From assembly GCF_011045215.1 (NCBI RefSeq), contig NZ_CP049201.1: a DNA stretch of 64,000 bases; one strand, written 5' to 3'. Below are positions 8,936 to 43,731 of the stretch, piece after piece (the first letter of the stretch is position 1; every line of letters begins with the position of its first letter). Both the position numbers and the translations under genes were made by a program. The stretch comes from Escherichia coli. Lineage in GTDB: Bacteria > Pseudomonadota > Gammaproteobacteria > Enterobacterales > Enterobacteriaceae. Below the pieces are notes generated by a model. The model did not search any database. It saw only the letters and a list, made by a program, of their open reading frames with translations, and was not told the DNA's origin.

Positions 8936-8951
8936 TCAAATGAGCACCAGG

Positions 8952-16188: not shown

Positions 16189-16407
16189 TCAAAACCACGT
16201 TGTTTTGAATTATATATCACGTCTTATAACAAAGTAATGTACCGGTTGTCTGAAGCGGTATGGTGGCAATGTAAATCGAAATCATGTTCACTTTGTATCA
16301 TGCCGCTTTATTAAATGAAAAGGGAATGATGTGTTGTAAGAAACCAAAGCAATCATTTCTTTATATTTCTTATTTTTGCCGTCAGGAATACACAAGGCGT
16401 ATTAACT

Positions 16408-17100: not shown

Positions 17101-17130
17101 CCGAATCATCTGACAATATCAGAGCTAATT

Positions 17131-20760: not shown

Positions 20761-20770
20761 GGTACGGAGA

Positions 20771-21286: not shown

Positions 21287-21288
21287 TA

Positions 21289-21921: not shown

Positions 21922-22163
21922 AGTTACCAGTCTCATAGGAGCGGACAATTTTCCGTTAGGGCGGTAAATTGTACTTTGATACATGAAAATACGGGTTTTC
22001 TTGATTCAGACGCGCAGCGGTGTGCGTTTGTTTGCCGCTATAGCGAAATAAATCAGAAAATCAGACGCGGTCGTTCACTTGTTCAGCAACCAGATCAAAA
22101 GCCATTGACTCAGCAAGGGTTGACCGTATAATTCACGCGATTACACCGCATTGCGGTATCAAC

Positions 22164-22240
22164 GCGCCCTTAGCTCAGTTGGATAGAGCAACGACCTTCT
22201 AAGTCGTGGGCCGCAGGTTCGAATCCTGCAGGGCGCGCCA
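22164..22240 (+). tRNA. argU: tRNA-Arg (anticodon UCU)
   Basis: 77-nt cloverleaf GCGCCCTTAGCTCAGTTGGATAGAGCAACGACCTTCTAAGTCGTGGGCCGCAGGTTCGAATCCTGCAGGGCGCGCCA; anticodon loop CCTTCTAAG. Confidence 0.95.
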
Positions 22241-22242
22241 TT
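22196..22242. repeat. attL core: 47-bp direct repeat (3' half of argU)
   Basis: identical to 43685-43731. Confidence 0.85.
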
Positions 22243-22255
22243 ACAATTCAATCAG

Positions 22256-23419
22256 TTACGCCTTCTTTATATCCTCCATAATTCCACAGTGGGACATATT
22301 TGGGACATTATCACCAAAAATGTCGTCTATTTTCCTTGCATGCTCTGTCAAATGATTAGGCGCAAGGTGAGCATACCTACGAACCATTTCTATGGACTCC
22401 CATCCGCCCATTTCCTGAAGCACAGATAATGGGACGCCTGACTGGATCAGCCAGCTTGCCCAGGTGTGTCTGAGGTCATGGAAACGGAAATCTTCAATTC
22501 CTGCACGACGACAAGCTGATAGCCATGATGTCTTGCTGTCGATGCGCATCTTCCTGACCGCAGGCGTTGATGTTCCATCTGCTCGCTTAGCCGCCTTGGT
22601 ATGTACAAACACCCATTTGTGATGCTTGCCTATTTGATCACGCAACACTTTACAGGCGGTATCGTTCAGCGCCACACCAATGGCGCGGTTTGATTTGCTC
22701 TCTTCTGGATTCACCCAGGCAACTCGTCGCTGCATGTCGATTTGTTGCCATTCCAGATTTATGATGTTCGACTTTCTCAGACCAGTTGCCAGCGCAAACT
22801 TGACGACAGATTTCAGTGGTTCGGGGCACTCATCAATAAGGCGTTTTGCTTCCTCCTTTTCCAGCCATCTGACTCGCTTGTTTCTGACCGCTGGTATCTT
22901 GATGACAGGCGCTTTTTCCAGCCACTTCCAGTCGCGTTCTGCAGCACGGAGAATGGCCTTTATCATGGCAAGATGCTTTGCCTTTGTCTGAGTTGATACT
23001 GGCTTTGGTTCATAAACAGGCGGTTCTTTACCTTTCCTGATGGCGGCCTGAACTTTCTGTTTCCATATTTCTTTCGTCTTTCTGTTATGCATTCTGCTTA
23101 CAGCAGAGTAAATCTTTGCCTCCGAGATATCTTTAAGCCTTATACCCTCAAAATGTTCAAGCCAGAACTCAATCCGGCTTTTATCTGAATCGAGAGATTT
23201 TTTATCAGCTTTTTCCTCAAGCCATCTTAGGCAGGCCTCTTCAAAAGTGACATCAGGTAAATCCCCTAGCTTTTCTACTCGCCAGAGTTCTGCTTTTCGC
23301 TTGTCGTGCAACTCCTGAGCTTGCCGCTTGTCCTTTGTGCCAAGAGATTCCTTAATTCGTTTCCCGCCCGGGAGCGAATACGAGGCATACCATATTTCAT
23401 TTCTGCGGAAGAGTGACAT
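22256..23419 (-). CDS. intD: prophage tyrosine integrase
   Basis: 387 aa; C-terminal R..HxxR..Y catalytic region (HDLRHTWAS ... RRYAHL); adjacent to argU. Confidence 0.9.
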
Positions 23420-23645
23420 TTTCTTTCCTCTGTTATGCCATCACCCGCGCTCACCTGGACAGTATGCAGCGGAGACTGAAGCGCCGCAATGCAAGCTTGC
23501 CGTGTTGTGAGGTAAGGAGATTTTGGCTTGGTTGGATCTTTACGTGTTGCCTGTAGGCGGCCTGTTCGTATCCAGTTGGTGGCGGTTGGTCTGGATATAT
23601 TAAGAAACTGACAGGCCTCATCGAGTGTGAGGCTGTATGGCTCCA

Positions 23646-23646
<1 letters not shown>
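23275..23646 (-). CDS. excisionase/AlpA-like HTH protein (start chosen at [10 protein letters not shown]...)
   Basis: HTH motif [26 protein letters not shown]; directly upstream of and overlapping int; 3' extent uncertain. Confidence 0.5.
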
Positions 23647-26262
<2,616 letters not shown>

Positions 26263-26272
<10 letters not shown>

Positions 26273-26811
26273 TTGCGTAACTCCGATAAATCGTTAAAAC
26301 GTTCCATAAACATCCCGTAGGCATGACCCGGTGCCAGTGGAATCACGTTGAACATCTCTGTTGCCGGGATGCCTTCCAGTACAGGCCAGAAAGAGCCATC
26401 ATCAAGCCCGAGATCGCGGCGTTCGGTTGCCAGCATGATGAGATCGGCATATTTCACGGGTGTACTCATAACTGGGGGTAACCCGTATTTCTCACGGATT
26501 ACGGCGTCTATTTTTTCTTCCATCCGTTTATAGTCAGGAAGAAGGCGTTTCAGTGGTGCGGGAATGTCCTGGCAATACGCTTCTGTTGCATCATGCATTA
26601 ACGCTTCAAAAGCAAATTCCTGCGGCACCAGCTGGCTGCAAAGAACCGCATGTTGGGCGACGCTGTAGAAGTGCGAAAGATGACCGGCAAAGCGACAGAT
26701 ATTTGAAAGGGAAACCGCGATATCGTTAATATCGATGTCGTCTTTATTTATCTTGTCATAATAAAAATGCTTCCCGGAAAAAGTTTTAATAAATGACATT
26801 TTGTTCTCCAC
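26263..26811 (-). CDS. HD-domain phosphohydrolase, YfdR/YfbR-like
   Basis: 182 aa; H..HD metal-binding pattern (HAVLCSQ, HDATEAY). Confidence 0.7.
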
Positions 26812-26926
26812 GTATATGCACTACACCGCGCTGAATTCTGGTAAAAGGAAGCCCTCACCATCCGGTGATTATTGAGTTAATTACGTTTCCATAAATGCCC
26901 CCGCAGGGGCATTTGCAGTAATGAAA

Positions 26927-27751
26927 TCAGGCGGTGAAAGTACCAATAAAGGTTTCTACTTTGCTGTCTTTGAATTTCTCAACAAGCAGATCACGAAATT
27001 CGTTAGCCATTTCTTCCTGCACCGCTTCCAGCTGAATAATGCGCAGAACCAGTACAGGACGATCGCCAGTGATAATGCTGAGGCGTAATTTAAACGGACG
27101 TTCTTTCAGACCTTCAAACGGAACGCATTTAAATTCAAATGCCACTGGCATAATGTCTTTGGTCTTCGCTTCGACAGACTCCATCAGGGAGCGTTTGCCG
27201 CTGAAGTCATTATCTTCAAAATCAGCGGTCTGGTTTGCTTCAATCGTGATTTTACGGACTGCCGCAGCCGCTTTTGTTGCTTGAATGGCGTCACCATTAG
27301 CATCAAAGCCCACAAGGTAGTCGGCCCAGTCTTCGATCCATTCTGCCAGTGACTTCTGGGAGTTACGCTCGCCGTTAACAGACAACAGAGTAGAGAACGG
27401 TGCTGTCTTTTTCAGTTTGAGAGTGGCAGTGTTATCTGCGTGACCTGGCTCATCAATAGTACCCAGGTTAAGCACACTGACGGCACGCATATTATCGGCA
27501 TCGATAAAGCAGCGGGTGCCTTCATCTGCAAGATCTTTAGAATAACGGGTAAAATCATCGATGCTGGCAGTGGAAAGTGCACCACGGAAACGGAAGCGAT
27601 TTAAATTAAATTTTTCCAGATCATGAATGCGGAAATTCTCAGGCAATGCCACAGCATCGGCACCAATCTTACTGATAATTTCATTAACACCCTGAGCAGA
27701 AATAAGGGCATGGATTTGATTAATTGCGGTTGCGTCTAAGTTCTGAGACAT
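26927..27751 (-). CDS. phage protein of unknown function, YfdQ-like (DUF2303-type)
   Basis: 274-aa ORF; assignment from remembered similarity to CPS-53 yfdQ. Confidence 0.6.
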
Positions 27752-27816
27752 AATAAGTCCTCACTATATAAAGATATTCAGTGATGAGATAAATAATCAG
27801 TTTATTACGAACGATA

Positions 27817-28179
27817 TTAACGACCTGCTGCGCGGAGTTTTCCGTCAGGTTCACCGGCAAGAGTCAGTAATTGTCCCTGGTCTTCCTGCAGAATAGTCAG
27901 GCGACCACCGCGATTGACATACATCGGCGTTTCGGTGGTGTCTTCTTCGGAAATTTTCCCGCGGTTAGTTGGGCGAACATATGAGAGTTTGTGTTTGATT
28001 TTCACACGGTTCTCATCAAACGGTTCGATTTCCAGATTGAGTGAGACCTTCCCTTTGGTTTTCGTGTTCATCACACCGGAAGCGACCTCACTGAGAACTG
28101 CGCCGATTTTGGTTTCAAATACGCCGCCGTCCAGCTCCCCGATAAATGCCTGCACATCAGTACTGCGTTCGCTAGCCAT
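27817..28179 (-). CDS. phage protein of unknown function, YfdP-like (120 aa)
   Basis: start at MASERS... preceded by AGGAG; the longer ORF upstream looks like non-coding extension. Confidence 0.55.
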   Translation of the reverse strand: MASERSTDVQAFIGELDGGVFETKIGAVLSEVASGVMNTKTKGKVSLNLEIEPFDENRVKIKHKLSYVRPTNRGKISEEDTTETPMYVNRGGRLTILQEDQGQLLTLAGEPDGKLRAAGR

Positions 28180-28199
28180 TTTGCTGCTCCTCATCATAT

Positions 28200-28645
28200 C
28201 GACCCTGCAAGGTCGGTTGGTTTCTCCACAAAACAGAGAAGAACACCTGCGGTGGCAGCCGCCCGGATGGATTGGGTTATGAGCCCGTCGTCCGGTGATG
28301 CTCTTCTCTGTTTTGCAAAAAAGGACGGTACCAGCCGGAAGCAAGGGTACAAACTGGTACCGCCAGGACTACACACAGCATAAAGTTGTGGTGCCGGGTG
28401 CCTCCCGGTGCCTGGCGAAGGTTGCACACCAGGCGGGTGGGTATCCACAGAAGGTCGACTGTCAGCCTCAACCTTAACCCGCGTGCGCTGAGCCGCATTC
28501 ACCACAACGCTAAGGATTCTCTCTGGTTGAAAATACTTAGCTGTTATGTGCCTGCTTTTAGCCACATCAGGCGAGGTGGACCTGGTTATTCCCCAACAAC
28601 AAGGATTCGGTTAATCTGGATATCCCCAACAACAATAAGAGTATT
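28200..28645. other. GC-rich structured non-coding block (candidate phage ncRNA or leader); strand unknown
   Basis: nested inverted repeats, e.g. CAAAACAGAGAAGA 28229-28242 / TCTTCTCTGTTTTG 28302-28315, GGTACCAG/CTGGTACC, CGCCAGG/CCTGGCG, AAGGTTG/CAACCTT; direct repeats CCCCAACAACAA at 28591 and 28624; ORFs here are not protein-like. Confidence 0.3.
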
Positions 28646-28649
28646 CAAT

Positions 28650-29165
28650 GTGATCGCTGAATTAACGGCAGCAATGACGGCTATTCGTGAAACAGCCCAG
28701 ATTGCAAAACTAATGAACGAGGCAAAAACTCAAGCTGAAGTAAATGCGGCTATTGGTGAGCTAAACTCAAAGCTTGCGTCTATTCAGCGCGAATGCGTGT
28801 CTCTCGTTGAACTGGTGGGCTCTTATCAAGAAATAAATGCTTCTCTCAAAGCTAAAATTGCAGAATTCGAAAACTTTGAGGCTCAGACGGAAGGCTATAT
28901 CCTTAACCAACTTGAGTCGGGTACTTTTGTATACTCGAAGGAGGTAATCGTGAACGGTGGCAGCATAACCATGCATCTTTGCCCAAAATGTTTTGGACAA
29001 AAGATAGTATCGATACTTCAACCATTCCCGGTTAGCGAAGATGAGCTTTTTCATAAAAGCAGGTGCCTCCACTGTGAAAATAAGTTTCTGATGAATAAAA
29101 ATCCGGATTACGTATCGCCTCCATCCATTGAGGAGTTGTCCAGAAAACTTAACGGCAATCTGTAG
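28650..29165 (+). CDS. orphan coiled-coil / zinc-ribbon protein (about 165-171 aa), function unknown
   Basis: GTG 28650 (AAGAG upstream) or ATG 28674; coiled-coil-like N-terminal half; CPKC...(18)...CLHC motif; own terminator; between early-left operon and cI. Confidence 0.55.
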   Translation: MIAELTAAMTAIRETAQIAKLMNEAKTQAEVNAAIGELNSKLASIQRECVSLVELVGSYQEINASLKAKIAEFENFEAQTEGYILNQLESGTFVYSKEVIVNGGSITMHLCPKCFGQKIVSILQPFPVSEDELFHKSRCLHCENKFLMNKNPDYVSPPSIEELSRKLNGNL

Positions 29166-29204
29166 ATTACTACTGTTGTGGATATCCAGATTGTTAAAGA
29201 GCTA

Positions 29205-29229
29205 AGCGTCCTGTAGGGCGCTTTTTTGT
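29205..29229 (+). terminator. rho-independent terminator of the zinc-ribbon gene
   Basis: hairpin AGCGTCCTGTAGGGCGCT followed by TTTTTTG. Confidence 0.6.
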
Positions 29230-29393
29230 TGCTAACGAATCATCCTGGACTTCATATGCCCCAGGCGGCTACTTCCTGGGCGTCCTGCCTGTTCGTTTTT
29301 GACATTTACTGACTGCTTACGACACATGCACCGTGTTGCAACCAGATTTTGTTGTAATCCTGTAGTTGGTCTGGAACAAAAGATAAAATTAAA

Positions 29394-29430
29394 TTGCGAG
29401 ATATGCAAGTAATGTTTGCGAAATATGCAA
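29394..29430. promoter_or_regulatory. two 15-bp operator-like palindromes (TTGCGAGATATGCAA, TTGCGAAATATGCAA)
   Basis: same TTGCG-N5-GCAA family as sites between cI and cro. Confidence 0.4.
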
Positions 29431-29440
29431 ATTTATAGGT

Positions 29441-29464
29441 AATAAAAAGCCACCTTTCGGTGGC
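29441..29464 (-). terminator. rho-independent terminator downstream of cI
   Basis: hairpin GCCACCGAAAGGTGGC followed by TTTTTATT on the minus strand. Confidence 0.55.
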
Positions 29465-29484
29465 CGATGGATGGGATATTGAGG

Positions 29485-30177
29485 TTAATTATGTCTCTTA
29501 AGGGTTTGCGACTGACTGATTAAGACCTTTCCAAAGACCATGAATCGGTGTTCGTTTTCGCTAGTAATTCCCCATTCACGGTAAATCTGGTTATCAGAAA
29601 TCACCAGCAGTTTGTCAGGAATCATTTGAAGTCTTTTAACGTATATTTTGTCATCAAAACCAAAGACATATATACCATCACCATCAAACTGATTGATGCT
29701 GACATCAACGAAGATGAGATCTCCTGGCTCAATGGTTGGACACATACTGTCCCCACGAACGTTGATAACTTTGATGTGATTGGCTGGTCGTCCGCCGAAC
29801 ATTGATACAGCATTATCAGTTCTGTATTCGATGGCATGAATCACATCAATGACATCACCGCCCTGGATAAGGCCATTTCCCGCACTGGCACTGATATCCA
29901 GCATTTCAATACGGAACACATCCTTCACCTGCGCAACATCCTCATTATTACTGTTTTTATATACAGTATTACTTTTGTGGGCAGAGGTAAAGAGATCAGC
30001 AATATCAACACCTAAGCTCTTGGCAATATTACTCAGTGTTTGTTCGGTAAATTGTTTTTGCTTACCCGTTTCTAAGCGCGAGATGTTCGCCGCATCTACT
30101 CCTATTGCTTCAGCGAGATCGGCGATTTTCATGTTCTTCGCTTGGCGAAGTTGTCTGACTCGGTTTCCTATGTTCAT
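29485..30177 (-). CDS. phage CI-type repressor (XRE HTH plus S24 LexA-like peptidase domain)
   Basis: 230 aa; N-terminal HTH; C-terminal region with GDSM and a conserved Lys typical of S24 autopeptidases; divergent from cro. Confidence 0.8.
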   Translation of the reverse strand: MNIGNRVRQLRQAKNMKIADLAEAIGVDAANISRLETGKQKQFTEQTLSNIAKSLGVDIADLFTSAHKSNTVYKNSNNEDVAQVKDVFRIEMLDISASAGNGLIQGGDVIDVIHAIEYRTDNAVSMFGGRPANHIKVINVRGDSMCPTIEPGDLIFVDVSINQFDGDGIYVFGFDDKIYVKRLQMIPDKLLVISDNQIYREWGITSENEHRFMVFGKVLISQSQTLKRHN

Positions 30178-30197
30178 GCGTTTATTACATTTCTTTA

Positions 30198-30260
30198 TTG
30201 CGTGATAAGCAAATCAACTTGCGCAAAATAATTGCGTGAAATAACATGCATAACGCGCAA
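30198..30260. promoter_or_regulatory. OR-like operator/promoter region between cI and cro
   Basis: TTGCGTGATAAGCAA (30198-30212), TTGCGCAA, and reverse-complement site ATGCATAACGCGCAA (30246-30260) in the 97-bp divergent intergenic region. Confidence 0.5.
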
Positions 30261-30274
30261 TATTTGGAGGGCAT

Positions 30275-30535
30275 ATGCAATCACCATTACGAAATGTGCG
30301 TAAGGCGCATGGTTTCACTTTGCAGCATGTTGCTGCGGGTGTTCAAGTCAATCCAGCGACGTTGAGTCGTATTGAGAGGCTGGAGCAGATTCCATCTATC
30401 GAGCTTGCAGAACGTTTAGCCAATTTTTTTAAGGGTGAAGTCAGCGAAATGCAGATTCTTTATCCGGCACGTTTTCAATCTAGCCAAAACCAGAATGGGT
30501 TTAAACCACAGGAACAGGAGGTGAACCGTGGGTAA
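30275..30535 (+). CDS. Cro-like HTH regulator
   Basis: 86 aa; HTH GFTLQHVAAGVQVNPATLSRIER; divergent from cI. Confidence 0.7.
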   Translation: MQSPLRNVRKAHGFTLQHVAAGVQVNPATLSRIERLEQIPSIELAERLANFFKGEVSEMQILYPARFQSSQNQNGFKPQEQEVNRG

Positions 30536-31079
30536 GCATCACTGGAAAGTAGAAAAACAGCCTGAGTGGTACGTGAAAGCTGTCAGAAAAACTATCGCAG
30601 CGTTGCCGGGGGGGTACGCTGAAGCTGCTGACTGGCTGGATGTAACAGAGAACGCATTATTTAACCGCCTTCGTGCCGATGGCGATCAGATTTTCCCGCT
30701 GGGATGGGCAATGATTTTGCAACGTGCTGGTGGAACTCACTTCATTGCTGACGCTGTGGCGCAGTCTGCAAATGGCGTCTTTGTGTCTCTTCCTGACGTC
30801 GAGGATGTGGACAACGCCGATATTAACCAGCGCCTGCTGGAAGTCATTGAACAGATCGGCAGTTATTCAAAACAGATTCGTTCAGCAATTGAAGACGGTG
30901 TAGTGGAACCGCATGAGAAGACAGCAATTAACGACGAGCTGTACCTCTCAATTTCGAAGCTGCAGGAGCATGCAGCACTGGTCTACAAAATTTTTTGCAT
31001 TTCAGAAAGTAATGACGCCCGCGAGTGTGCAGCTCCGGGCGCCGTGGCGTGTCGTGACTGTGGAGAAACTAACGCATGA
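30528..31079 (+). CDS. phage CII-like regulatory protein (CP76-type)
   Basis: 183 aa; position after cro; family assignment from memory. Confidence 0.45.
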
Positions 31080-31434
31080 ACAGTTTAACAACACACTACC
31101 GTCGCTCGCAACTGATTGCGCTTCCTGTACCGGGTGGAAAAGCGAAGGTGGAGTATTGCTATGCAGTAAATGTACCAGGTGACAGGGAAATTGTAACCCA
31201 CAGCTTTGCAGAGTGGGCTGTGGGTGATTTCAACCGGCAGAAGGAGACAGTCCTTTGCGACAAGTTAACCGCTGGTTCAAAGATCACTACGGAGTGCCCG
31301 TCAGAGTCATTCGTTGGGAGCCGGAAACACAACGTGTTATCTACCTCCGCGAAGGCTATGAGCATGAGTGCTTCAGCCCGCTCGAACAGTTTCGTCGTAA
31401 ATTCAGGGAAATAGAGGTCGGTCATGAGCACTAA
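31076..31434 (+). pseudogene. phage gene with apparent frameshift
   Basis: protein-like translation switches between two reading frames near 31230-31260; 3' part ends overlapping the next start. Confidence 0.35.
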
Positions 31435-31787
31435 ATTAACCGGCTATGTATGGGATGGTTGCGCTGCATCAGGCATGAAATTATCCAGCGTGGCAATTAT
31501 GGCCCGCCTGGCTGATTTCAGTAATGACGAAGGTGTGTGCTGGCCATCAATTGAAACCATTGCCCGCCAGATTGGCGCGGGGATGAGTACCGTCAGAACG
31601 GCTATCGCACGGCTGGAAGCAGAAGGCTGGTTAACGCGTAAGGCGCGTCGCCAGGGTACCGTCGTGCCGCAACCGTGTGGATGGCGGCATTCCGTGAAAG
31701 CCACTCCCAGCCAGAACGAAACAATTTTCTGGCGCGTCGTGAGCGGTGCTTACGGAAAAGCAGCAAGCGCGCTGCATCGGGTGAAGA
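31424..31787 (+). pseudogene. replication-associated HTH protein, probable remnant
   Basis: N-terminal ~90 aa resemble phage replication-initiator HTH domains; rest of the ORF to 32089 is low-complexity Gly/Arg-rich and overlaps the next gene in another frame. Confidence 0.3.
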
Positions 31788-32147
31788 GTGGTATCTGTCA
31801 GGGAATTACGTGGGGGCTTAATGACGACGTTAACTCAATGCCAGCAGCAGGTGCTGGATATGCTGATTTCTTACCAGAAAGAACGTGGCTTCCCGCCAAC
31901 CAATCAGGAGGTGGCTACCATGCTGGGATACCGTTCAGTGAATGCAGCGGTGGAGCATCTTCGCGCACTGGAGAAAAAAGGCGTCATCACGATAAAGCGT
32001 GGCGTGGCCCGGGGCATCACGCTTCATACCGCGGTGAAGGACGACGACAGCGAGGTGGCCGGGATTATCCGCGCACTGCTTGCTGGTGAGGAAAACGCCA
32101 GGCTGCGTGCAGCCCACTGGTTACATGAGAGGGGGCTGAAAGTATGA
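31788..32147 (+). CDS. winged-helix DNA-binding protein (LexA N-terminal-like)
   Basis: GTG 31788 or ATG 31821; stop coupled to rusA start. Confidence 0.45.
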   Translation: MVSVRELRGGLMTTLTQCQQQVLDMLISYQKERGFPPTNQEVATMLGYRSVNAAVEHLRALEKKGVITIKRGVARGITLHTAVKDDDSEVAGIIRALLAGEENARLRAAHWLHERGLKV

Positions 32148-32521
32148 AGCTGATTCTGCCTTTTCCACCCAGCGTGAACACCTACTGGCGACACCCCAAC
32201 AAAGGGGCATTTGCTGGTAAGAGCCTGATAAGCGCGGCGGGGCGAAAATTCCAGAGTGCGGCGTGCACAGCAATAGTTGAGCAGTTACGTCGTCTGCCGA
32301 AACCAACGTCGGCACCTGCTTCAGTGGAGATCGTGTTGTTTCCTCCGGATAACCGGATCCGCGATCTGGACAACTATAACAAGGCGCTGTTTGACGCCCT
32401 GACCCACGCGGGTGTGTGGGAAGACGACAGCCAGGTGAAAAGAATGCTGGTGGAGTGGGGACCGGTTATCCCGGAAACGGATGTTGCGGGTTGTTGTTCT
32501 GCGGGTTCTGTTCTTCGTTGA
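32144..32521 (+). CDS. rusA: RusA-family Holliday-junction resolvase
   Basis: 125 aa; conserved RDLDN...ALFDALT...DD motifs; C-terminal tail atypical. Confidence 0.65.
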   Translation: MKLILPFPPSVNTYWRHPNKGAFAGKSLISAAGRKFQSAACTAIVEQLRRLPKPTSAPASVEIVLFPPDNRIRDLDNYNKALFDALTHAGVWEDDSQVKRMLVEWGPVIPETDVAGCCSAGSVLR

Positions 32522-32723
32522 CATGAGGTTGCCCCGTATTCAGTTTCGCTGATTTGTATTGTCTGAAGTTGTTTTTACGTTAAGTTGATGCAGATCAATT
32601 AATACGATACCTGCGTCATAATTGATTATTTGACGTGGTTTGATGGCGTAGATGCACGTTGTGACATGTAGATGATAATTATTATCATTTTGCGGGTCCT
32701 TTCCGGCGATCCGACATGTTACG

Positions 32724-32735
32724 GGGCGGCGACCT
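32724..32735. other. lambda-type cohesive end site cosN, with cosB-like sequence to 32912
   Basis: GGGCGGCGACCT followed by CGCGGGTTTTCGCTATTTATGAAAATTTTCCGG, matching the remembered lambda left end, directly upstream of Nu1. Confidence 0.8.
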
Positions 32736-32912
32736 CGCGGGTTTTCGCTATTTATGAAAATTTTCCGGTTTAAGGCGTTTCCGTTCTTCTTCGTCGTAAC
32801 TTAATGTTTTTATTTAAAATACCCCCTGAAAAGAAAGGAAACGACAGGTGCTGAAAGCGAGCTTTTTGGCCTCTGTCGTTTCCTTTCTCTGTTTTTGGCC
32901 GTGGAATGAACA

Positions 32913-33458
32913 ATGGAAGTCAACAAAAAGCAGCTGGCTGACATTTTCGGTGCGAGTATCCGTACCATTCAGAACTGGCAGGAACAGGGAATGCCCGTTC
33001 TGCGAGGCGGTGGCAAGGGTAATGAGGTGCTTTATGACTCTGCCGCCGTCATAAAATGGTATGCCGAAAGGGATGCTGAAATTGAGAACGAAAAGCTGCG
33101 CCGGGAGGTTGAAGAACTGCGGCAGGCCAGCGAGACAGATCTCCAGCCAGGGACTATTGAGTACGAACGCCATCGACTTACGCGTGCGCAGGCCGACGCA
33201 CAGGAGCTGAAAAATGCCAGAGACTCCGCTGAAGTGGTGGAAACCGCATTCTGTACTTTCGTGCTGTCGCGGATCGCAGGTGAAATTGCCAGTATTCTCG
33301 ACGGGATCCCCCTGTCGGTGCAGCGGCGTTTTCCGGAACTGGAAAACCGACATGTTGATTTCCTGAAACGGGATATCATCAAAGCCATGAACAAAGCAGC
33401 CGCGCTGGATGAACTGATACCGGGGTTGCTGAGTGAATATATCGAACAGTCAGGTTAA
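32913..33458 (+). CDS. nohD: terminase small subunit Nu1 homologue
   Basis: 181 aa, near-identical to remembered lambda Nu1 (MEVNKKQLADIFGASIRTIQNWQEQGMPV...). Confidence 0.9.
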   Translation: MEVNKKQLADIFGASIRTIQNWQEQGMPVLRGGGKGNEVLYDSAAVIKWYAERDAEIENEKLRREVEELRQASETDLQPGTIEYERHRLTRAQADAQELKNARDSAEVVETAFCTFVLSRIAGEIASILDGIPLSVQRRFPELENRHVDFLKRDIIKAMNKAAALDELIPGLLSEYIEQSG

Positions 33459-34324
33459 CAGGCTGCGGCATTTTGTCCGCGCCGGGCTTCGCTCACTGTT
33501 CAGGCCGGAGCCACAGACCGCCGTTGAATGGGCGGATGCCAATTACTATCTCCCAAAAGAATCCGCATACCAGGAAGGGCGCTGGGAAACACTGCCCTTT
33601 CAGAGGGCCATCATGAATGCGATGGGCAGTGACTACATCCGCGAGGTGAATGTGGTGAAGTCTGCCCGTGTTGGTTATTCCAAAATGCTGCTGGGTGTTT
33701 ATGCCTACTTCATAGAGCATAAGCAGCGCAATACCCTTATCTGGTTGCCGACGGATGGTGATGCCGAGAACTTTATGAAAACCCACGTTGAGCCGACTAT
33801 TCGTGATATTCCGTCGCTGCTGGCGCTGGCCCCGTGGTATGGCAAAAAGCACCGGGATAACACGCTCACCATGAAGCGTTTCACCAATGGGCGTGGCTTC
33901 TGGTGCCTGGGCGGTAAAGCGGCAAAAAACTACCGTGAAAAGTCAGTGGATGTGGCGGGTTATGATGAACTTGCTGCCTTTGATGAGGATATTGAACAGG
34001 AAGGCTCTCCGACGTTCCTGGGCGATAAGCGTATTGAAGGCTCGGTCTGGCCAAAGTCCATCCGTGGCTCCACGCCCAAAGTGAGAGGCACCTGCCAGAT
34101 TGAGCGTGCAGCCAGTGAATCCCCGCATTTTATGCGTTTTCATGTTGCCTGCCCGCATTGCGGGGAGGAGCAGTATCTTAAATTTGGCGACAAAGAGACG
34201 CCGTTTGGCCTCAAATGGACGCCGGATGACCCCTCCAGCGTGTTTTATCTCTGCGAGCATAATGCCTGCGTCATCCGCCAGCAGGAGCTGGACTTTACTG
34301 ATGCCCGTTATATCTGCGAAAAGA
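33433..34324 (+). pseudogene. terminase large subunit (lambda A) N-terminal ~297 codons, truncated
   Basis: matches lambda A up to ...YICEKTGIW, then diverges into junk; junction near 34324. Confidence 0.8.
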
Positions 34325-34364
34325 CCGGGATCTGGAGGGGAATACCAACATCGCCGGTGTCACG

Positions 34365-34823
34365 GTGGTGTTCCGGGCAGGTGAACAGGAGCAGACACCG
34401 CCGGAGGGATTTGAATCCTCCGGATCCGAGACGGTGCTGGGTACGGAAGTGAAATACGACACGCCGATCACCCGGACCATCACGTCTGCAAACATCGACC
34501 GTCTGCGCTTTACCTTCGGTGTGCAGGCACTGGTGGAAACCACCTCAAAGGGGGACCGGAATCCATCGGAAGTCCGCCTGCTGGTTCAGATACAACGTAA
34601 CGGTGGCTGGGTGACGGAAAAAGACATCACCATTAAGGGCAAAACCACCTCGCAGTATCTGACCTCGGTGGTGGTGGGTAACCTGCCGCCGCGCCCGTTT
34701 AATATCCGGATGCGCAGGATGACGCCGGACAGCACCACAGACCAGCTGCAGAACAAAACGCTCTGGTCGTCATACACCGAAATCATCGATGTGAAACAGT
34801 GCTACCTTCTGCCCGTAAGGTGA
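34365..34823 (+). pseudogene. internal fragment of tail tip protein J
   Basis: translation ...GTEVKYDTPITRTITSANIDRLRFTFGVQALVETTSKGDRNPSEV... matches the middle of lambda J. Confidence 0.75.
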
Positions 34824-36004
34824 ATGGTAAGGCGCTTTCAGCGGATATAACACTGACGCCGAAAGATATTGGTACGCTTAACTCAACAACAATGTCATTC
34901 AGCGGTGGTGCTGGTTGGTTCAAATTAGCAACGGTAACCATGCCACAGGCGAGTTCTGTTGTTTCAATTACGTTGATTGGTGGAGCTGGATTTAACGTGG
35001 GGTCACCTCAACAGGCAGGTATATCTGAACTTGTTTTGCGTGCAGGTAATGGTAATCCGAAGGGGATTACTGGTGCTTTATGGCAGCGCACATCGACAGG
35101 GTTTACAAATTTTGCCTGGGTCAATACATCTGGTGATACTTACGATATTTACGTTGCAATCGGAAATTATGCGACTGGTGTAAATATTCAATGGGATTAT
35201 ACCAGTAATGCCAGCGTGACGATTCATACGTCACCAGCATATTCTGCTAATAAGCCGGAAGGGTTAACGGACGGTACAGTTTATTCACTCTATACGCCAT
35301 CAGAACAGTTTTATCCGCCTGGCGCACCAATCCCGTGGCCATCAGATACCGTTCCGTCTGGCTATGCCCTGATGCAGGGGCAGACTTTTGACAAATCTGC
35401 CTACCCGAAACTTGCAGTCGCTTATCCGTCAGGCGTGATCCCTGATATGCGTGGCTGGACGATTAAGGGCAAGCCCGCCAGTGGTCGTGCCGTATTGTCT
35501 CAGGAACAGGACGGCATTAAATCGCATACCCACAGCGCCAGCGCATCCAGTACGGATTTGGGTACGAAAACCACATCGTCGTTTGATTACGGAACCAAAT
35601 CCACGAATAACACCGGGGCGCATACCCATAGTATTAGCGGGACTGCAAATAGTGCCGGTGCGCACCAACACAAGAGTTCCGGTGCATTTGGTGGCACGAA
35701 CACGAGCATTTTTCCTAATGGTTATACTGCGATTTCAAATCCAAGCGCGGGGATTATGAGCACAACAAGCGGTACTGGCCAGACTCGTAATGCAGGGAAG
35801 ACATCATCAGATGGTGCTCATACCCACTCACTGTCCGGCACTGCTGCAAGCGCAGGTGCACACGCACATACTGTCGGTATTGGTGCTCATACGCACTCCG
35901 TTGCGATTGGTTCACATGGACACACCATCACCGTTAACGCTGCTGGTAACGCGGAAAACACCGTCAAAAACATCGCATTTAACTATATTGTGAGGCTTGC
36001 ATAA
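34799..36004 (+). CDS. side tail fibre protein, C-terminal portion (Stf-like)
   Basis: 401 aa; Gly/Ser/Thr/His-rich repeats (GAHTHS, GAHQHK, GAHAHT) typical of tail-fibre C-termini; followed by tfa. Confidence 0.6.
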
Positions 36005-36585
36005 TGGCATTCAGAATGAGTGAACAACCACGGACCATAAAAATTTATAATCTGCTGGCCGGAACTAATGAATTTATTGGTGAAGGTGACGCATATATTC
36101 CACCTCATACAGGTCTGCCAGCAAACAGTACCGATATTGCACCGCCAGATATTCCGGCAGGCTTCGTGGCTGTTTTCAACAGTGATGAGGCATCGTGGCA
36201 TCTTGTTGAAGACCATCGGGGTAAAACGGTTTATGACGTGGCTTCCGGCGACGCGTTATTTATTTCTGAACTCGGCTTATTACCGGAAAATGTCACCTGG
36301 TTATCCCCGGAAGGGGAGTTTCAGAAGTGGAACGGCACAGCCTGGGTGAAAGATGCAGAAGCAGAAAAACTGTTCCGGATCCGGGAGGCGGAAGAAACAA
36401 AAAACAACCTGATGCAGGTAGCCAGTGAGCATATTGCGCCACTTCAGGATGCTGTAGATCTGGAAATCGCAACGGAGGAAGAAAACTCGTTGCTGGAAGC
36501 CTGGAAGAAGTATCGGGTGTTGCTGAACCGTGTTGATACATCAACTGCACCTGATATTGAGTGGCCTGTAATACCAGAAGTTTAA
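36004..36585 (+). CDS. tail fibre assembly protein (Tfa)
   Basis: 193 aa; stop/start overlap with stf. Confidence 0.75.
36424..36548. repeat. direct repeat copy 1 (3' end of tfa)
   Basis: about 90 percent identical to 40254-40380. Confidence 0.7.
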
Positions 36586-36704: not shown

Positions 36705-37595
36705 TTAGTTTTTACTATTTATCTTTGTTTGTGGTTCTCCTTCAGCAAGCTCAGCGCCAGTGACAGGATTGATGTCTTCATGGGATTTCAACCTTGTTGC
36801 CATAGCTTTTATCATAGCTTCTTGCTTGGTCGAAAGATTTATCGAGGCCTTCCCATCCCCACCGTCAACCGCTGGAACTGGATCGGAAATATAGTCAAAG
36901 TTTTCATCACTGTTCCAACTACCTCTGACGTCTTCACCTTCTGACATGTTGTAATATACGTTTTTGTATTTCTCAATTGGTGGTAATTTTCCTGGTGGAA
37001 AGGTGTTGCGAATTGAATGTAATGCTTTTTCAAATGAAAGCATGTGTGCTGCTTCCCTGGTCATTAAAAATGCCAGAGTGTCTTTTACTCCAGGATCATC
37101 AGTAACATTAATGAGACGTTCGTAAATGATCTTTGCCCGAGCTTCAGCTGCAATATTTGAACGAAGATCGGCCGTGACTTCGCCAATAGTATCAACATAA
37201 GCTGCAGTCCAGGGTACTCCAGCTGAATTAGTTAATGCTGGGCCTCCTCCGTAGAGGAGAGAAGTTATATGGCTGTCATTGCCATTTTGAGTTAAGGAAC
37301 GGTAAAGCTCAGCTTCATTCTCAGTTCCTTCAGCAAGTGCTCCTTTTGCACCTTTGTTGAGCATACCAACAAGAGAACCAATAATTTCGAGATGACTTAG
37401 TTCTTCTGTTGCTATGTCCATCAGCATATCCCTTCGGCCTGCATCTTCATCACTTAAGCCTTGAGTGAAGTATCGGCATGCTGCTGCAAGCTCACCCTGT
37501 GGCCCGCCGAATTGTTCTAAAAGTAGATTAGCCAAGCCTGGGTTTGGCTCACTTACACGTACTGTATATTGAAGTTTTTTCACGTGTCTAAACAT
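36705..37595 (-). CDS. manganese (non-haem) catalase, KatN-like
   Basis: 296 aa ferritin-like di-metal protein; last gene of the yciG/yciF/yciE-like operon, as in the Salmonella yciGFE-katN arrangement. Confidence 0.7.
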   Translation of the reverse strand: MFRHVKKLQYTVRVSEPNPGLANLLLEQFGGPQGELAAACRYFTQGLSDEDAGRRDMLMDIATEELSHLEIIGSLVGMLNKGAKGALAEGTENEAELYRSLTQNGNDSHITSLLYGGGPALTNSAGVPWTAAYVDTIGEVTADLRSNIAAEARAKIIYERLINVTDDPGVKDTLAFLMTREAAHMLSFEKALHSIRNTFPPGKLPPIEKYKNVYYNMSEGEDVRGSWNSDENFDYISDPVPAVDGGDGKASINLSTKQEAMIKAMATRLKSHEDINPVTGAELAEGEPQTKINSKN

Positions 37596-37613
37596 AATGC
37601 CTCCTCAAAAGAA

Positions 37614-38120
37614 TTATTTTTTGGCTTCAACTCCATCAATTTCAGATCTGACCATGAATTGCTCAGTGGTGTCAGGAATATGGTTAAGAAGCCATTCAGC
37701 CATTTGTTTTTCTTCATTAAGAATTGCTTCAATAATGGGTACTGAAGCTGTATCACCCGCATTTTTGGCTGCTGCGAGAAGAGATGTGTAGCACGCAATT
37801 TCAAATTGTTCGAAAACATAGCCACTGATCGAACCTTTGACAATTTCATCAGATGGAAAAATTCCACCAATGGATTGCCCAAACGCGGCCATTTTACTCA
37901 TAGAGTCTTTAATGACAGAGCGCGAAATATTATTACGATCAAGTATGCTTTCAAGCTGTGAAAGCTGGTTCTTTGTTTCGCTAATGTGCTGCTCAATTCT
38001 GGAACGTAACTCTGGATAGTTTTCTATCCGGCTGGCCATAGACTCAAGCATTTTTTCAGCTTGTTTCTCCATCGCATGTGCATCACGAAGCCAGTCATGG
38101 TAATGTTCAATTCTATTCAT
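37614..38120 (-). CDS. DUF892 ferritin-like stress protein, YciE-like
   Basis: 168 aa; recognised as a YciE paralogue. Confidence 0.7.
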   Translation of the reverse strand: MNRIEHYHDWLRDAHAMEKQAEKMLESMASRIENYPELRSRIEQHISETKNQLSQLESILDRNNISRSVIKDSMSKMAAFGQSIGGIFPSDEIVKGSISGYVFEQFEIACYTSLLAAAKNAGDTASVPIIEAILNEEKQMAEWLLNHIPDTTEQFMVRSEIDGVEAKK

Positions 38121-38156
38121 AATCTGTTTATCCTAAAAGAAATTGAAGTCTATAGT

Positions 38157-38663
38157 TCAGGAGTTATCCTGAGCTTTTTTATTAACGTTATTAAATGCCA
38201 GGTCTGTTAATTTGACATCAGTAGCTTTTTCCTCTTCCAGTGTTTCTTTCAGGAGTTTAGCCGCTTTTTTATATCCTAATTGCTCAGCGAGTGTTACCAA
38301 AGTGCCATAACTGGCAATTTCATAGTGCTCTACTTTTTGTGCTGCAGCAATCAATGCAGCATCACGTACTTCATTTTTATCAGTGCTTTCAATTACCTCA
38401 TTCGCCTCTTCGATAAGTCCTTCCATTGCGGCACACTTAATTCTTTTCAATTTAAGACCATCTTCAGAATCAACAATCTGATCGATGCGTTCAATTTGAC
38501 CATGTGTCTCATCAAGATGTGACTGAAAAGCAGCGGTTAATTTATCACTATATGCAGAGCGACTAAGTTTAGACAGTGCCTTTGTTAGTTGTTTCTCAGC
38601 GCTGTATGTATCCGATAATAAGTGGATGAAGATATCTTCAACAGATTTAATTTGCATAATCAC
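38157..38663 (-). CDS. DUF892 ferritin-like stress protein, YciF-like
   Basis: 168 aa; recognised as a YciF paralogue. Confidence 0.7.
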   Translation of the reverse strand: MIMQIKSVEDIFIHLLSDTYSAEKQLTKALSKLSRSAYSDKLTAAFQSHLDETHGQIERIDQIVDSEDGLKLKRIKCAAMEGLIEEANEVIESTDKNEVRDAALIAAAQKVEHYEIASYGTLVTLAEQLGYKKAAKLLKETLEEEKATDVKLTDLAFNNVNKKAQDNS

Positions 38664-38735
38664 TCCAGAGTTTTCACTGCGAGCCCGTAGGCTCGCAGTT
38701 AGCTTCAGTTATTCACGAATGTAGGGGATGATAAA

Positions 38736-38918
38736 TTAAGAGTCAGATTTACGGCCGCCACCATGGCTATTCTGACCACCTTTTTTCCCTGCTTCTGATG
38801 CTCTTTGTGGATCGTTTTTAAAATTACCGCCACTATGTTGGCCGCCTTTACGACCAGCGTCAGAAGCTTTTTGTCGATCTTCAGCGAAATTACCTGCACC
38901 GCCACGATGTTCGGTCAT
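38736..38918 (-). CDS. KGG-repeat general stress protein, YciG-like
   Basis: 60 aa with repeated KGG / RKGGQ motifs. Confidence 0.65.
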   Translation of the reverse strand: MTEHRGGAGNFAEDRQKASDAGRKGGQHSGGNFKNDPQRASEAGKKGGQNSHGGGRKSDS

Positions 38919-40147: not shown

Positions 40148-40453
40148 ATGCTGCCGCAGCATGGCGATATTGAAATAGCCTGGTATGCTTCAATACAGCA
40201 GGAGCCGAATGGCTGGAAGACCGTCACCACACAGTTCTACATCCAGGAATTCAGTGAGTATATTGCGCCACTGCAGGATGCTGTAGATCTGGAAATCGCA
40301 ACGGAGGAAGAAAGATCGTTGCTGGAGGCATGGAATAAATATCGGGTATTGTTGAATCGTGTTGATACATCAGTAGCTCTGGGTATGAAGCTGTTTGTAA
40401 CTCATGTTACAGTAACAGCCATTACTATCTCGAAGGTGCAAAATGTATATTGA
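40148..40453 (+). pseudogene. tail fibre assembly (tfa) 3' remnant
   Basis: only the C-terminal Tfa segment ([34 protein letters not shown]) is recognisable. Confidence 0.6.
40254..40380. repeat. direct repeat copy 2 (tfa 3' end)
   Basis: pairs with 36424-36548. Confidence 0.7.
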
Positions 40454-40636: not shown

Positions 40637-42121
40637 TTATTGTATTTCTGCTTCAGAATTTCCTGGGCAGTATATATTTTCTATTTTTTGTGGAGTGATC
40701 AGGTGATGTACAACTGCTTTATCTACACATAAATTAACTCCGGTGAGAGCTAATGTATGCCCATCACCATTTATTGTTAGTAACGGGCTGGAAAATTTCT
40801 CTGCCATCTTACGGGCATTAATCCAGGGCGTTGTTGGATCGTATTTGTGTGCTACAAACAGTAAACCAGAGGGCAGAACAGTATTTTTCAGGCGAGTTTT
40901 GTTCAGGTCGCTATGTATTGGCCATAATTCACAAAAATCAGGTGAATCGGAACGTCCATTGTCAAAGTTAATAGCCGGGAAGGCATTCGCAAGAGCCTCT
41001 TTTCGGAATTTTCGCTCTTCTGGTGTTAATTGCTCATCCCCCTGATCTACACAAAGGATTACCCCCGAAGCATCACTTGACTCTTCTGAGGCTATCGGAG
41101 CACTGAGCGCAGTTTCAATTTCATTACTGACAATCCCCTGAGAGAACTGGCGTATGGCAGTTGCAAGGGTTGGCCATGATGAACGCCATAGCAGAAGGTC
41201 TGTTGTTAATGATATGAGTTCATCTGAAGATATATTTTCTCCCTTACTGTCTAATAAAGGTTTGTGATGTAATTTTGATAATAGCTCATGGAACTGAGTT
41301 ATTGCCTTATCTCTGTCTGAAGAAAGCGGGCAACTTTTTGTACGCGCACACCAGGATGCAAAGCGATCAAACGTTTCCTGATAACTCTGTGCCTGTTTGA
41401 GTTGCCATGTGAAGTTGTTCTCCAGGTCATCGATATCGACGACTCCATCAAGAACGATAGATCTTACGTTGTAGGGAAAACGTTCTGCATATAAGGCTGC
41501 AATTTGAGTTCCATACGAATACGCCACGGCTGTCAGTTGTTTATCCCCCAAGGCTTGCCTAATACGATCAATATCGTATACAGCCTCGTTAGAGCCGATA
41601 TGGCGAATGACTTCGGCTCCGGTATTATGGATACAGGCATTAATTTTATTTAATACTTGTTGCTTTTCGGTTATGTTTTCCTGAGTCTCTGTATCTGATT
41701 GTCGGCAGTTTATTGTCGGAGTGGACTGTCCGACGCCTCGAGGATCAAATCCAATAATATCCCATGACTCACGAAGATTTGTGACTGGCCAGTCAAAGTT
41801 AATATAAGGATTTATGCCTGGCAACCCGGGACCACCACTTATTATCAGGATACTTCCTTTATGCTTGCTTTTTGCCGGCAATTTTGTCAACGCTAGTTTG
41901 ACTTGTGATTTTTTTTCATAAGAAGCATCTCCGCCTGTGTCTGTATATTTTAATGGAACAGACAAATAACCACATAGTAAGTCAGGAGACGGTTTTTCCT
42001 CACCAAACCAGTGGTTGAATTGACTGGCCATACAGGATTGCCACTGTATCTGCTGGGCAGATACGGTTACTGGTAGAAGTAACGTTAAAACAACTTTGAA
42101 ATGAGTAATTATTTTTCGCAT
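40637..42121 (-). CDS. secreted alpha/beta-hydrolase (peptidase S33-like)
   Basis: 494 aa; N-terminal signal peptide; GGPG and nucleophile-elbow-like AYSYG motifs. Confidence 0.6.
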   Translation of the reverse strand: MRKIITHFKVVLTLLLPVTVSAQQIQWQSCMASQFNHWFGEEKPSPDLLCGYLSVPLKYTDTGGDASYEKKSQVKLALTKLPAKSKHKGSILIISGGPGLPGINPYINFDWPVTNLRESWDIIGFDPRGVGQSTPTINCRQSDTETQENITEKQQVLNKINACIHNTGAEVIRHIGSNEAVYDIDRIRQALGDKQLTAVAYSYGTQIAALYAERFPYNVRSIVLDGVVDIDDLENNFTWQLKQAQSYQETFDRFASWCARTKSCPLSSDRDKAITQFHELLSKLHHKPLLDSKGENISSDELISLTTDLLLWRSSWPTLATAIRQFSQGIVSNEIETALSAPIASEESSDASGVILCVDQGDEQLTPEERKFRKEALANAFPAINFDNGRSDSPDFCELWPIHSDLNKTRLKNTVLPSGLLFVAHKYDPTTPWINARKMAEKFSSPLLTINGDGHTLALTGVNLCVDKAVVHHLITPQKIENIYCPGNSEAEIQ

Positions 42122-42307: not shown

Positions 42308-43261
42308 TTAAAAGGTGTACTTAAGACCAGCAGTAGTGATGAAGTTATAGTTTTCTATGCCTGCACCATTTTTGCTGTAGTCTGAAGTGTTATCATTGTG
42401 ATCATAAAGTGAAGTATTACCTTTTTTATTCGTAACCCGATTCCATGCGCCTTCAACATAAACTTTTGCGTTAGGTGTTACGTAATAACCTGCATTGACT
42501 GCAACAGAATAGTAATTTTGGTCTTTGACCTTACTGCGATAAGTGATTCTTTTTCCCGGGTCATAGTGTTCATCGTTATCAGATGATTCCACCCAGCCGC
42601 TGTATTTAAATGTGCCACCGAGTTCAAAATCTTCATAACGATAACTTCCAGTCAAGCCAATGTAGGGCATTTTAAAACGTTGTTTGTAGCCGATTGCTCT
42701 TTCTCCATTCGGGAAGGAGCCGATATCATCTCTGAATCCCTCCTCAGAACTGTAGATATAGGAACCACCTCTGGCTGTAAAGCTATAACGGCTTTCCTGA
42801 TATCCGGCCATGAGTCCCAGGCGGTAATTGGGTTCGTTGAGGAGCCAGCCTTTGATATTCAGATCAAATTCGTTGGCATAATTGAGTTGTGTATCAGGGT
42901 GCTTACTTTCATCTGTCCAGGTTCCGGGGTTACTGGAATCCATCCAGTCCTGATCGACCATATTGCCACCCCGGCTGCCGAGAGTAGTCCAGCCCGCAGC
43001 CCCAATAGATATCTGGGGCATCAAATCCCAATTAATTGCACCTTTAATAATTGCAGCGTTATTGAATTTCCAGTCGAGTTGACTGACTTTTCGGCCTCCT
43101 TCTTCAGCTAGATAAACGCGCTCTTTTGTTTTTCCGCTCAGAGTTCCAAGACTAATGTCCACATTTATGTTGTCAGGAGTAAACGATATAGTCTCGGTAG
43201 AAGCAAAAGAGCTGATCGCAATAGGGGTTGTCAGGACTATTCCCAGAAGTTTCGCCCGCAT
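42308..43261 (-). CDS. ompT: outer-membrane protease (omptin)
   Basis: 317 aa, recognised as OmpT. Confidence 0.95.
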   Translation of the reverse strand: MRAKLLGIVLTTPIAISSFASTETISFTPDNINVDISLGTLSGKTKERVYLAEEGGRKVSQLDWKFNNAAIIKGAINWDLMPQISIGAAGWTTLGSRGGNMVDQDWMDSSNPGTWTDESKHPDTQLNYANEFDLNIKGWLLNEPNYRLGLMAGYQESRYSFTARGGSYIYSSEEGFRDDIGSFPNGERAIGYKQRFKMPYIGLTGSYRYEDFELGGTFKYSGWVESSDNDEHYDPGKRITYRSKVKDQNYYSVAVNAGYYVTPNAKVYVEGAWNRVTNKKGNTSLYDHNDNTSDYSKNGAGIENYNFITTAGLKYTF

Positions 43262-43684
43262 AAAAGTTCTCCATTCAATCGTTTTAATGATTGAATATGT
43301 ATTTTTTATATCTAACTTAATGAGTCAATTACATATTGCTCCACTGTTTATATTTTGTTTAGTATTGAATGATTATCACAATGCGCTATCTATTTTTGGT
43401 TTAATTATCTGTTATTGTTTCATATTGCGGTTTTACTGTGTGTTTTTTTTATGCTTTTGTGGTGCTTTTATCTATTTAAGTGCCATGCCTTTAGAGGCAT
43501 ATAAGCGAAAATAGCACGAGGTTTATCCTCAATTGCTATGTTTTTTAGTACAAAAAAGAGGGACAAAACTGAGACACATAAGGCCTCACAATGGCTTGCA
43601 AGGCTTTACATGTTTTGAGGTAGTGGGACGTGTGAGCGCAGAGATGGCGCGGTAAGTTGTTGACTTAAAATGTCGTTCTAGGAA

Positions 43685-43731
43685 CTTCTAAGTCGTGGGC
43701 CGCAGGTTCGAATCCTGCAGGGCGCGCCATT
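43685..43731. repeat. attR core: 47-bp copy of the argU 3' half
   Basis: identical to 22196-22242; no 5' half of a tRNA is present. Confidence 0.85.

Follow-up and report, generated by a model that had tools for sequence, protein, structure and literature searches.

In a 64,000-nt stretch of Escherichia coli DNA (contig NZ_CP049201.1 of assembly GCF_011045215.1; the whole stretch is called the window below), we identified a defective lambdoid prophage of 21.5 kb (22193-43731) at the 3' end of argU. The segment from its truncated rusA gene to tfa is very probably the inert core of a lambda-like, DLP12-type prophage that has decayed by internal deletions in place. Set against a full-length relative at this site, it has lost four internal blocks, very probably by short-homology illegitimate recombination with 2-5 bp shared at each joint: from rusA' to just upstream of cos (taking the late regulation and lysis genes), from A codon 301 to J codon 56 (taking all head and most tail genes), from J codon 213 to the middle of stf, and a 1-kb piece of the replication gene; separately, an IS21-family element has entered the early left arm. 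From rusA' to tfa there remain cos, intact in sequence, nu1, likewise intact, and pieces of three genes (A', J' and stf'). The stf side of the third of these deletions coincides with a breakpoint that recurs in many other prophages, which may tentatively be read as a deletion hot spot and is treated separately below.

The prophage lies between two 50-bp direct repeats, attL (22193..22242, + strand), which covers the 3' end of the tRNA-Arg(UCU) gene argU (22164-22240, ARAGORN) and was located by megablast against the PapM prophage introduced below, and attR (43682..43731, + strand), the second copy of the argU repeat. The chromosomal flanks of the window are 98.2-98.7% identical to K-12 MG1655 (local blastn), in the same order as in that strain: folD-sfm-fimZ-argU-intD on the left and ompT-envY-ybcH-nfrAB-cusSRCFBA on the right. 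An intact IntD-type tyrosine integrase of 387 aa (22256..23419, - strand; Pfam Phage_integrase, E 5.5e-47) adjoins attL, and the argU-intD block is 98.7% identical to K-12 at the nucleotide level. The prophage has a lambda-type cos and a Nu1 homologue (nohD), retains an S24-peptidase cI-type repressor, cro and a cII-like gene (Pfam), and has lost its lysis and morphogenesis genes according to tblastn. The element is a private member of a well-known kind, the DLP12-type cryptic lambdoid prophages, and shares its integration site with K-12 DLP12, having decayed independently of it.

As a near-ancestral reference we used the full-length 47.7-kb argU prophage of E. coli PapM-36-2 (NZ_CP050646.1), found by searching with the rusA side; the block map was made by collinear megablast against it, and the joints and their microhomologies were read from three-way alignments. 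Window positions 21823-24094 correspond to reference positions 1-2272, 26047-31661 to 2266-7878, 31657-32476 to 8908-9727, and 32693-34336 to 15819-17462, J' corresponds to 31518-31989, and from 35812 on the window is again as in PapM-36-2 (tfa, manganese catalase, yciE/F/G-like genes, ybcY, a hydrolase and ompT). These blocks are 96.8-99.9% identical to the reference and are broken only by the four deletion gaps and the insertion sequence. The two prophages share att, int, the immunity and early genes (99.2-99.9%), the rusA type, the head-to-J order and the cargo after tfa; the PapM-36-2 prophage differs in being complete, in having another sequence over 220 bp upstream of cos and another central stf, and in an extra 1.66 kb between ompT and attR (an acetyltransferase and an HTH gene; window 43374-43557 versus reference 46258-47915). 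With lambda, DLP12 and PapM proteins as queries against the window, tblastn recovers A 1-301, J 54-212, replication protein 1-79 and YfdN 111-164, and finds no match in the window for Q, S, R, Rz, Bor, YbcV/W, the porin, W, B, E, V or H. None of the four joints (D1, J1, J2 and J3 below) is contiguous in 5,426 complete E. coli genomes, so the element is a private deletion derivative.

The first of the joints at the rusA-tfa core, J1, lies inside the rusA reading frame. What remains of rusA (32144..32472, + strand) is codons 1-110 of the 129 that encode a RusA-family resolvase (Pfam RusA, covering positions 1-110 of the 124 in the profile), and the open reading frame runs on to 32521, gaining a 15-aa foreign tail from lambda-derived DNA; the resolvase gene is truncated, not intact. 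Since rusA' is 99.9% identical to the PapM-36-2 type up to 32476 and the lambda match starts at 32473, the joint must fall at 32473..32476 (+ strand), where rusA' passes to the lambda right end (about lambda nt 48,252) with the microhomology GGAA(A). Here ~0.2 kb of lambda-type DNA stands in place of 6.1 kb (relative to PapM-36-2), leaving the prophage ~5.9 kb shorter and without KilA-N, DUF968, quuD, the porin, essD, rrrD, rzpD and bor/iss. From 32473 to 34336 the window matches positions 20532-22396 of the lambda prophage record with 98.1% identity over 1,865 bp (local blastn), a block containing the lambda right end, cos, Nu1 and A nt 1-904.

The lambda-type cos region occupies 32473..32912 (+ strand) and aligns to lambda over 440 bp, differing by 14 mismatches and a single 1-bp gap. 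The cosN cohesive end GGGCGGCGACCT is found at 32724-32735, 251 bp past J1 and 202 bp past the stop of the rusA' frame, in keeping with the roughly 200 bp of lambda right-end sequence first noted between the resolvase gene and cosN. The other subsites, whose names and positions we take from lambda cos, are cosQ (GGGTCCT, 32694-32700, + strand) and the cosB boxes R3 (~32776-32793), R2 (~32828-32843) and R1 (~32877-32891), all on the + strand. All these elements are conserved; cosQ, cosN and cosB follow one another in this order, the cohesive-end 12-mer and the cosQ heptamer are the same as in lambda, and there is a single G>T change 7 bp left of the cosN nick; judged by its sequence, cos appears intact. 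Nu1, the nohD-type small terminase subunit (32913..33458, + strand; 181 aa; Pfam Phage_Nu1, E 3.9e-101), is intact, as had been noted, and 179 of its 181 residues are identical to lambda, leaving two substitutions.

The terminase large subunit is cut short at J2. A' (33433..34336, + strand) holds codons 1-301, the ATPase domain only (tblastn 99.7%; Pfam GpA_ATPase), with 300 of 301 residues identical to lambda over nt 1-904, after which the match ends and the reading frame continues out of frame to 34452. J2 (34335..34336, + strand) joins A nt 904 to J nt 166 with the 2-bp microhomology GA, and 14,055 bp are lost: the rest of A, W, B, C/Nu3, D, E, FI, FII, Z, U, V, G, T, H, M, L, K, I and the start of J. 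The fragment J' (34335..34806, + strand) is internal to the tail-tip protein J (nt 166-637, codons 56-213; Pfam FNIII-A_GpJ); it is 96.6% identical to lambda at the nucleotide level over 472 bp (blastn), 99% identical to J of the ATCC 11775 prophage, and identical at 154 of 157 residues. The initial annotation had A lose its match after about codon 297 and an internal J segment follow about 40 bp later in another frame. The end of the match, the internal J segment and the frame shift all stand; the match reaches codon 301, and J' directly abuts A' with a 2-bp overlap (GA), the first start codon of the J' reading frame (34365-34823) lying ~40 bp past the end of A'. For the similarity of A and J, chance is ruled out by the lambda identities of 96.6-98.1% over 472-1,865 bp, with E-values reported as 0.

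A third joint, J3, which the initial annotation did not include, carries J' onto the middle of stf. It lies at 34803..34810 (+ strand), with the crossover between 34806 and 34807, joins J nt 637 to stf nt ~1,898, and reads GC TA CC followed by TTCT, with the microhomology TACC. In the coordinates of the ATCC 11775 prophage, ~5.56 kb is lost, comprising the rest of J, lom and the 5' part of stf. The fragment stf' (34807..36004, + strand) supplies the C-terminal ~400 codons of the side tail fibre, with the collar domain and fibre repeats (Pfam Collar, Phage_fiber), and is followed by an intact tail fibre assembly gene, tfa (36004..36585, + strand; 193 aa; Pfam Caudo_TAP, E 3e-44).

Two further lesions lie in the early region. 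The deletion joint D1 (31657..31661, + strand) has lost 1,029 bp relative to PapM-36-2, with the crossover in TA, and fuses codon 79 of a replication/HTH gene to codon 111 of yfdN; it reads GGGTA/CCG, crossing at TA then CC and giving a GGTACC site. The IS21-family insertion (24095..26048, + strand) contains istA (24181-25203) and istB (25200-25982), with Pfam rve/HTH and IstB_IS21 domains, is flanked by a 5-bp target duplication (ATCAG), and is absent from PapM-36-2 (reference position 2272). Both junctions originally described as large deletions are genuine scars, and the count rises to at least five lesions, four deletions and the IS21-family insertion. The microhomologies mapped at the breakpoints (rusA/cos, GGAA(A); A/J, GA; J/stf, TACC; replication-gene deletion, TA) carry the usual signature of short-homology illegitimate recombination.

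Over half of the prophage genome is lost, and apart from the J3 breakpoint this is ordinary prophage decay. The scars on their own record no more than the death of one DLP12-type prophage, here reconstructed to the base with the help of its full-length relative. The absence of Q, lysis and bor-type genes, claimed at the outset, is borne out by tblastn and by the comparison with PapM-36-2, and extends to the holin, endolysin, Rz, ybcV/W and porin genes. Replication, late regulation, lysis, heads and tails are all missing, so the loss of lytic capacity is overdetermined and cannot be attributed to the two deletions that had been held to explain it. A', J' and stf' cannot build a particle; going by gene content, the element would be unable to replicate, lyse or assemble virions, and the scars probably have no function of their own. 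The parts that could still act are the sequence-intact cos with nu1 and the near-lambda homology that is left, which amounts to about 1.9 kb, 0.5 kb and 1.8 kb, and the cos-nu1-A' block to 1.86 kb at 98% identity to lambda; by analogy, the cos-nu1-A' and stf'-tfa blocks would probably matter solely as substrates for homologous recombination with incoming lambdoid phages. In K-12 DLP12, lambda recombines efficiently around cos, and nu1, R and Rz of DLP12 work in lambda (PMC3945230).

Several observations weigh against a simple derivation by deletion in place. The direct ancestor was not PapM itself: window positions 32473-32692 are like lambda and K-12 DLP12 where PapM differs, stf belongs to the ATCC 11775 allele type and not to that of PapM, and identity to PapM-36-2 is uneven across the blocks, from 99.9% down to 96.8%. 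Recombination with other lambdoids has also shaped the region, and the ancestor was a mosaic relative; and since the joints are private among the 5,426 genomes, the order and age of the events are not reconstructable and there is no second genome for cross-validation. The same observations feed an explanation by mosaicism alone, in which the cos-nu1-A' and stf'-tfa blocks would have been acquired by homologous exchange among lambdoid prophages and not left behind by deletions. The block-wise identities to PapM (99.9% in the early region, 98.1% in cos-A and 96.8% in J) would fit it, as would the 220-bp lambda/DLP12-type stretch upstream of cos together with the different stf allele, and in experiments lambda and DLP12 often exchange DNA around cos (PMC3945230). 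Homologous exchange, however, cannot join non-homologous partners such as those found here (rusA/ylcI-side DNA, A/J and J/stf), only 2-5 bp are shared at each joint, and the gene order is collinear with a full-length prophage; we consider mosaicism alone improbable.

That the element is instead a selected, helper-dependent cos island, a satellite packaged by a lambda-type helper via the retained int, repressor, cos and nu1, is very improbable. Its intact integrase, repressor, cro, cII-like gene and nu1 and its sequence-intact cos are what such an island would keep, but the replication gene is destroyed (truncated at codon 79), an IS21 element is inserted, and there are no capsid-remodelling or interference genes; nor is the architecture conserved elsewhere in the manner of a PICI-like element, the joints being absent from the 5,426 genomes. 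The lower limit for lambda packaging is roughly 37 kb, and the 21.5 kb of this element is well below it. Slighter still is the chance of an assembly artefact, with contigs wrongly joined over repeated prophage sequence. Misassembly at lambdoid prophage repeats is common and the joints occur in this sequence alone, but they connect non-repeated partners with the microhomology typical of real deletions, correct att repeats bound an element that is collinear with a real prophage, and many finished genomes have analogous joints at the same stf site. Decay by in-place deletion, in an ancestor that was itself mosaic, remains the reading we favour.

The comparison with known prophages places the element among relatives that have been reduced in other ways. 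K-12 DLP12 (order intD ... rusA, quuD, essD-rrrD-rzpD, borD, cos, nohD, aaaD', tfaD) has the same argU site and integrase, a lambda-type cos with an intact Nu1 homologue, ompT and the downstream markers in place, and likewise a truncated A gene fused to tail-fibre DNA. It differs in keeping quuD, the lysis cassette and bor, and in joining A nt ~309 to tfaD, whereas the window has 904 nt of A, a J fragment and 1.2 kb of stf, with an unrelated early region (yfdT...yfdN type). K-12 DLP12 and the prophages of the FORC_081 type thus carry other nested deletions around the same cos-nohD core. Phage lambda itself is 98.1% identical from the right end through cos and Nu1 to A (nt 1-904), 96.6% in J (nt 166-637) and 93% in tfa; the window has fragments only, and its stf C-terminal module is unlike lambda's until ~35314.

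The breakpoint on the right-hand side of J3 recurs in other prophages (record loci L005 5993-6010 from ATCC 11775, L001, L006-L008 and L010-L045). From exactly TTCTGCCCGTAAGG... on, more than 1,000 E. coli genomes have stf genes that match the window at 99.6% identity, and in intact stf genes TTCTGCCCGTAAGG is preceded by ...AATGGTCGGGTACC. Including the window, the breakpoint is joined to 12 distinct left partners, at the same TA each time and in different prophages: lambda A nt ~1,046 (FORC_081), two J positions (one at the C-terminus), a Nu1-like gene (in a Qin prophage), the P2 portal gene, an internal stf site, two sites in the Rac ynaK region, the lambda orf63 region, and others. Among the 50 IMG/VR loci that contain the 28-mer to the right of the breakpoint, aberrant joints occur in 9 and the other 41 are intact. 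A marker placed 37 nt downstream diverges solely at the breakpoint or 95 nt and more to the left of it, where the number of repeats differs among intact alleles, and a marker 428 nt downstream reveals just two other deletion joints in the whole interval. The N-terminal side of the breakpoint is never joined to other DNA (47 of 47 loci continue normally), and this lack of reciprocal diversity fits deletions that always remove upstream DNA; all joints at the breakpoint are indeed deletions of upstream DNA.

FORC_081 (L001) and BR1220 (L008) carry the same DLP12-like defective prophage at bio/att-lambda with different joints that both end at the same stf nucleotide, and these are therefore independent events in one lineage. 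Their truncated packaging genes are fused to stf at the window's exact nucleotide; unlike the window, they have A nt ~1,046 and an internal stf site as left partners, sit at another chromosomal site and keep their lysis genes. The same pattern is seen in two Rac-type contigs (L013 and L033). Scans of metagenomes and species-representative genomes for contexts of the breakpoint found none, and in the literature we found no described stf deletion hot spot.

The native partner sites share features with the stf site. In eight of the nine undeleted native partner sites the crossover falls on TA, the exception being the P2 portal, so that a TA at both ends collapses to one copy, as in a TA-flanked excision. 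The 8 nt on the deleted side of the partners resemble the reverse complement of the stf deleted side (TA-CCCGACCA), with 34 matches versus 15.4 expected from 3,499 TA sites (Monte Carlo P = 2.5e-6), under a rule that was formulated post hoc; they show no resemblance to the retained stf side. The window's own J partner site reads TA-CCCGAACA and matches at seven of eight positions. On this pattern a lost segment tends to have inverted repeats at its two ends, each bordered by TA, with a single TA left after the loss. This inverted-repeat signal comes mostly from three partners, and one partner recovered later scored 4/8.

It is possible, and we propose it tentatively, that TGGTCGGG-TA-CCTTCTG in stf is a nucleotide-precise deletion hot spot that a recombinase or transposase of E. 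coli or of a prophage may use as a fixed pseudo-end. In the corresponding account of the window's J/stf joint, to which we give about the same limited credence, the joint would have arisen by protein-mediated site-specific excision, with TGGTCGGG-TA acting as a pseudo-end or pseudo-att half-site together with inverted look-alikes upstream (TA-CCCGAnCA) and one TA left behind; the excised upstream segment would leave as a circle with a near-perfect palindrome (TGGTCGGGTACCCGACCA). The 12 left partners joined at one TA, the scarcity of other joints nearby (two within 428 nt on the right and, on the left, none for ~95 nt), the TA crossovers and the inverted similarity of the deleted sides, strong in the window's J site, all favour such an excision. 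Set against it are the post hoc rule with its three dominant partners and the low later score, the P2 portal partner without TA, and a window that has no recombinase gene except Int and the IS21 transposase; moreover, taken singly, the window joint could be explained by its 4-bp microhomology TACC alone. Candidates for the activity are a transposase or a serine recombinase acting on pseudo-ends, or slippage assisted by inverted repeats.

Other candidates were tried and set aside. According to a proposal by Sandmeier (1994, cited in PMC3945230), stf exchange is driven by Din-family invertases, and the Din crossover sites (pix of e14, gix, cix) are also recombination sites in tail-fibre genes at the boundary of constant and variable parts; the stf breakpoint, in contrast, lacks the pix sequence and position, an inverted partner and an adjacent invertase. 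A crossover by Pin, Gin or Cin was rejected because the e14 pix sites (L009 4774-4806 and 6604-6629) differ in sequence and in their position within the fibre gene. The 26-bp dyad TTCTCNNAAACC-NN-GGTTTNNGAGAA has no match in the window at up to 3 mismatches, and the window contains neither an inverted copy of the stf breakpoint site nor a pin homologue. An invertible segment with pinQ was likewise discarded, as the Qin tfaQ-pinQ spacer gave no alignment with the stf region above shuffled controls, and serine recombinases show no linkage to the breakpoint loci (ybcK and pinQ homologues are near just 2 of them). A hairpin or cruciform at the breakpoint receives no significant support from DNA folding (z-scores -0.4 to -1.3). 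The apparent inversion in ET791 is a plain deletion between natively divergent P2 genes, and K-12 Qin is not an example of the joint, K-12 stfQ/nohA being joined elsewhere. For the idea of a restriction cut, the control GGTACC site in J gave just one match, which is uninformative. An IS-like mobile cassette with a fixed right end was also rejected: the sharp mosaic boundary at 36566-36571 is simply where the conserved part of tfa ends (...DIEWP), and beyond it the tail differs from allele to allele.

Other genes and fragments are found within the att-bounded element. The LexA DNA-binding domain alone makes up a small protein (31821-32147) just upstream of rusA', which is kept in many lambdoid prophages. 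Between tfa and attR lie a manganese catalase and yciE-, yciF- and yciG-like stress genes (36705-38918), which the PapM-36-2 prophage has too; the yci-like genes of the prophage are paralogues of the chromosomal yciGFE cluster that adjoins trpA in ATCC 11775 (L005). A second 3' fragment of tfa (tfaX-like, 83% identical, in direct orientation) is found at 40241-40400, 3.8 kb downstream. A 494-aa alpha/beta hydrolase (Abhydrolase_1 plus TAP-like; 40637-42121) sits where K-12 DLP12 has appY, just upstream of ompT (42308-43261), which is itself within the element.

If the stf site is indeed a deletion hot spot used by an enzyme, lambdoid and P2-like prophages would repeatedly shed structural genes through the action of that enzyme and keep the fibre tip and its chaperone. 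This would explain the frequent survival of the stf tip and tfa beside stumps of packaging genes (remnants of the nohD/aaaD/tfaD type). If decay is partly channelled via a specific site and enzyme, the deletion spectra of prophages would not be neutral, and the site would offer a testable way into the question of how other phages gain access to tail-fibre modules that they can capture.

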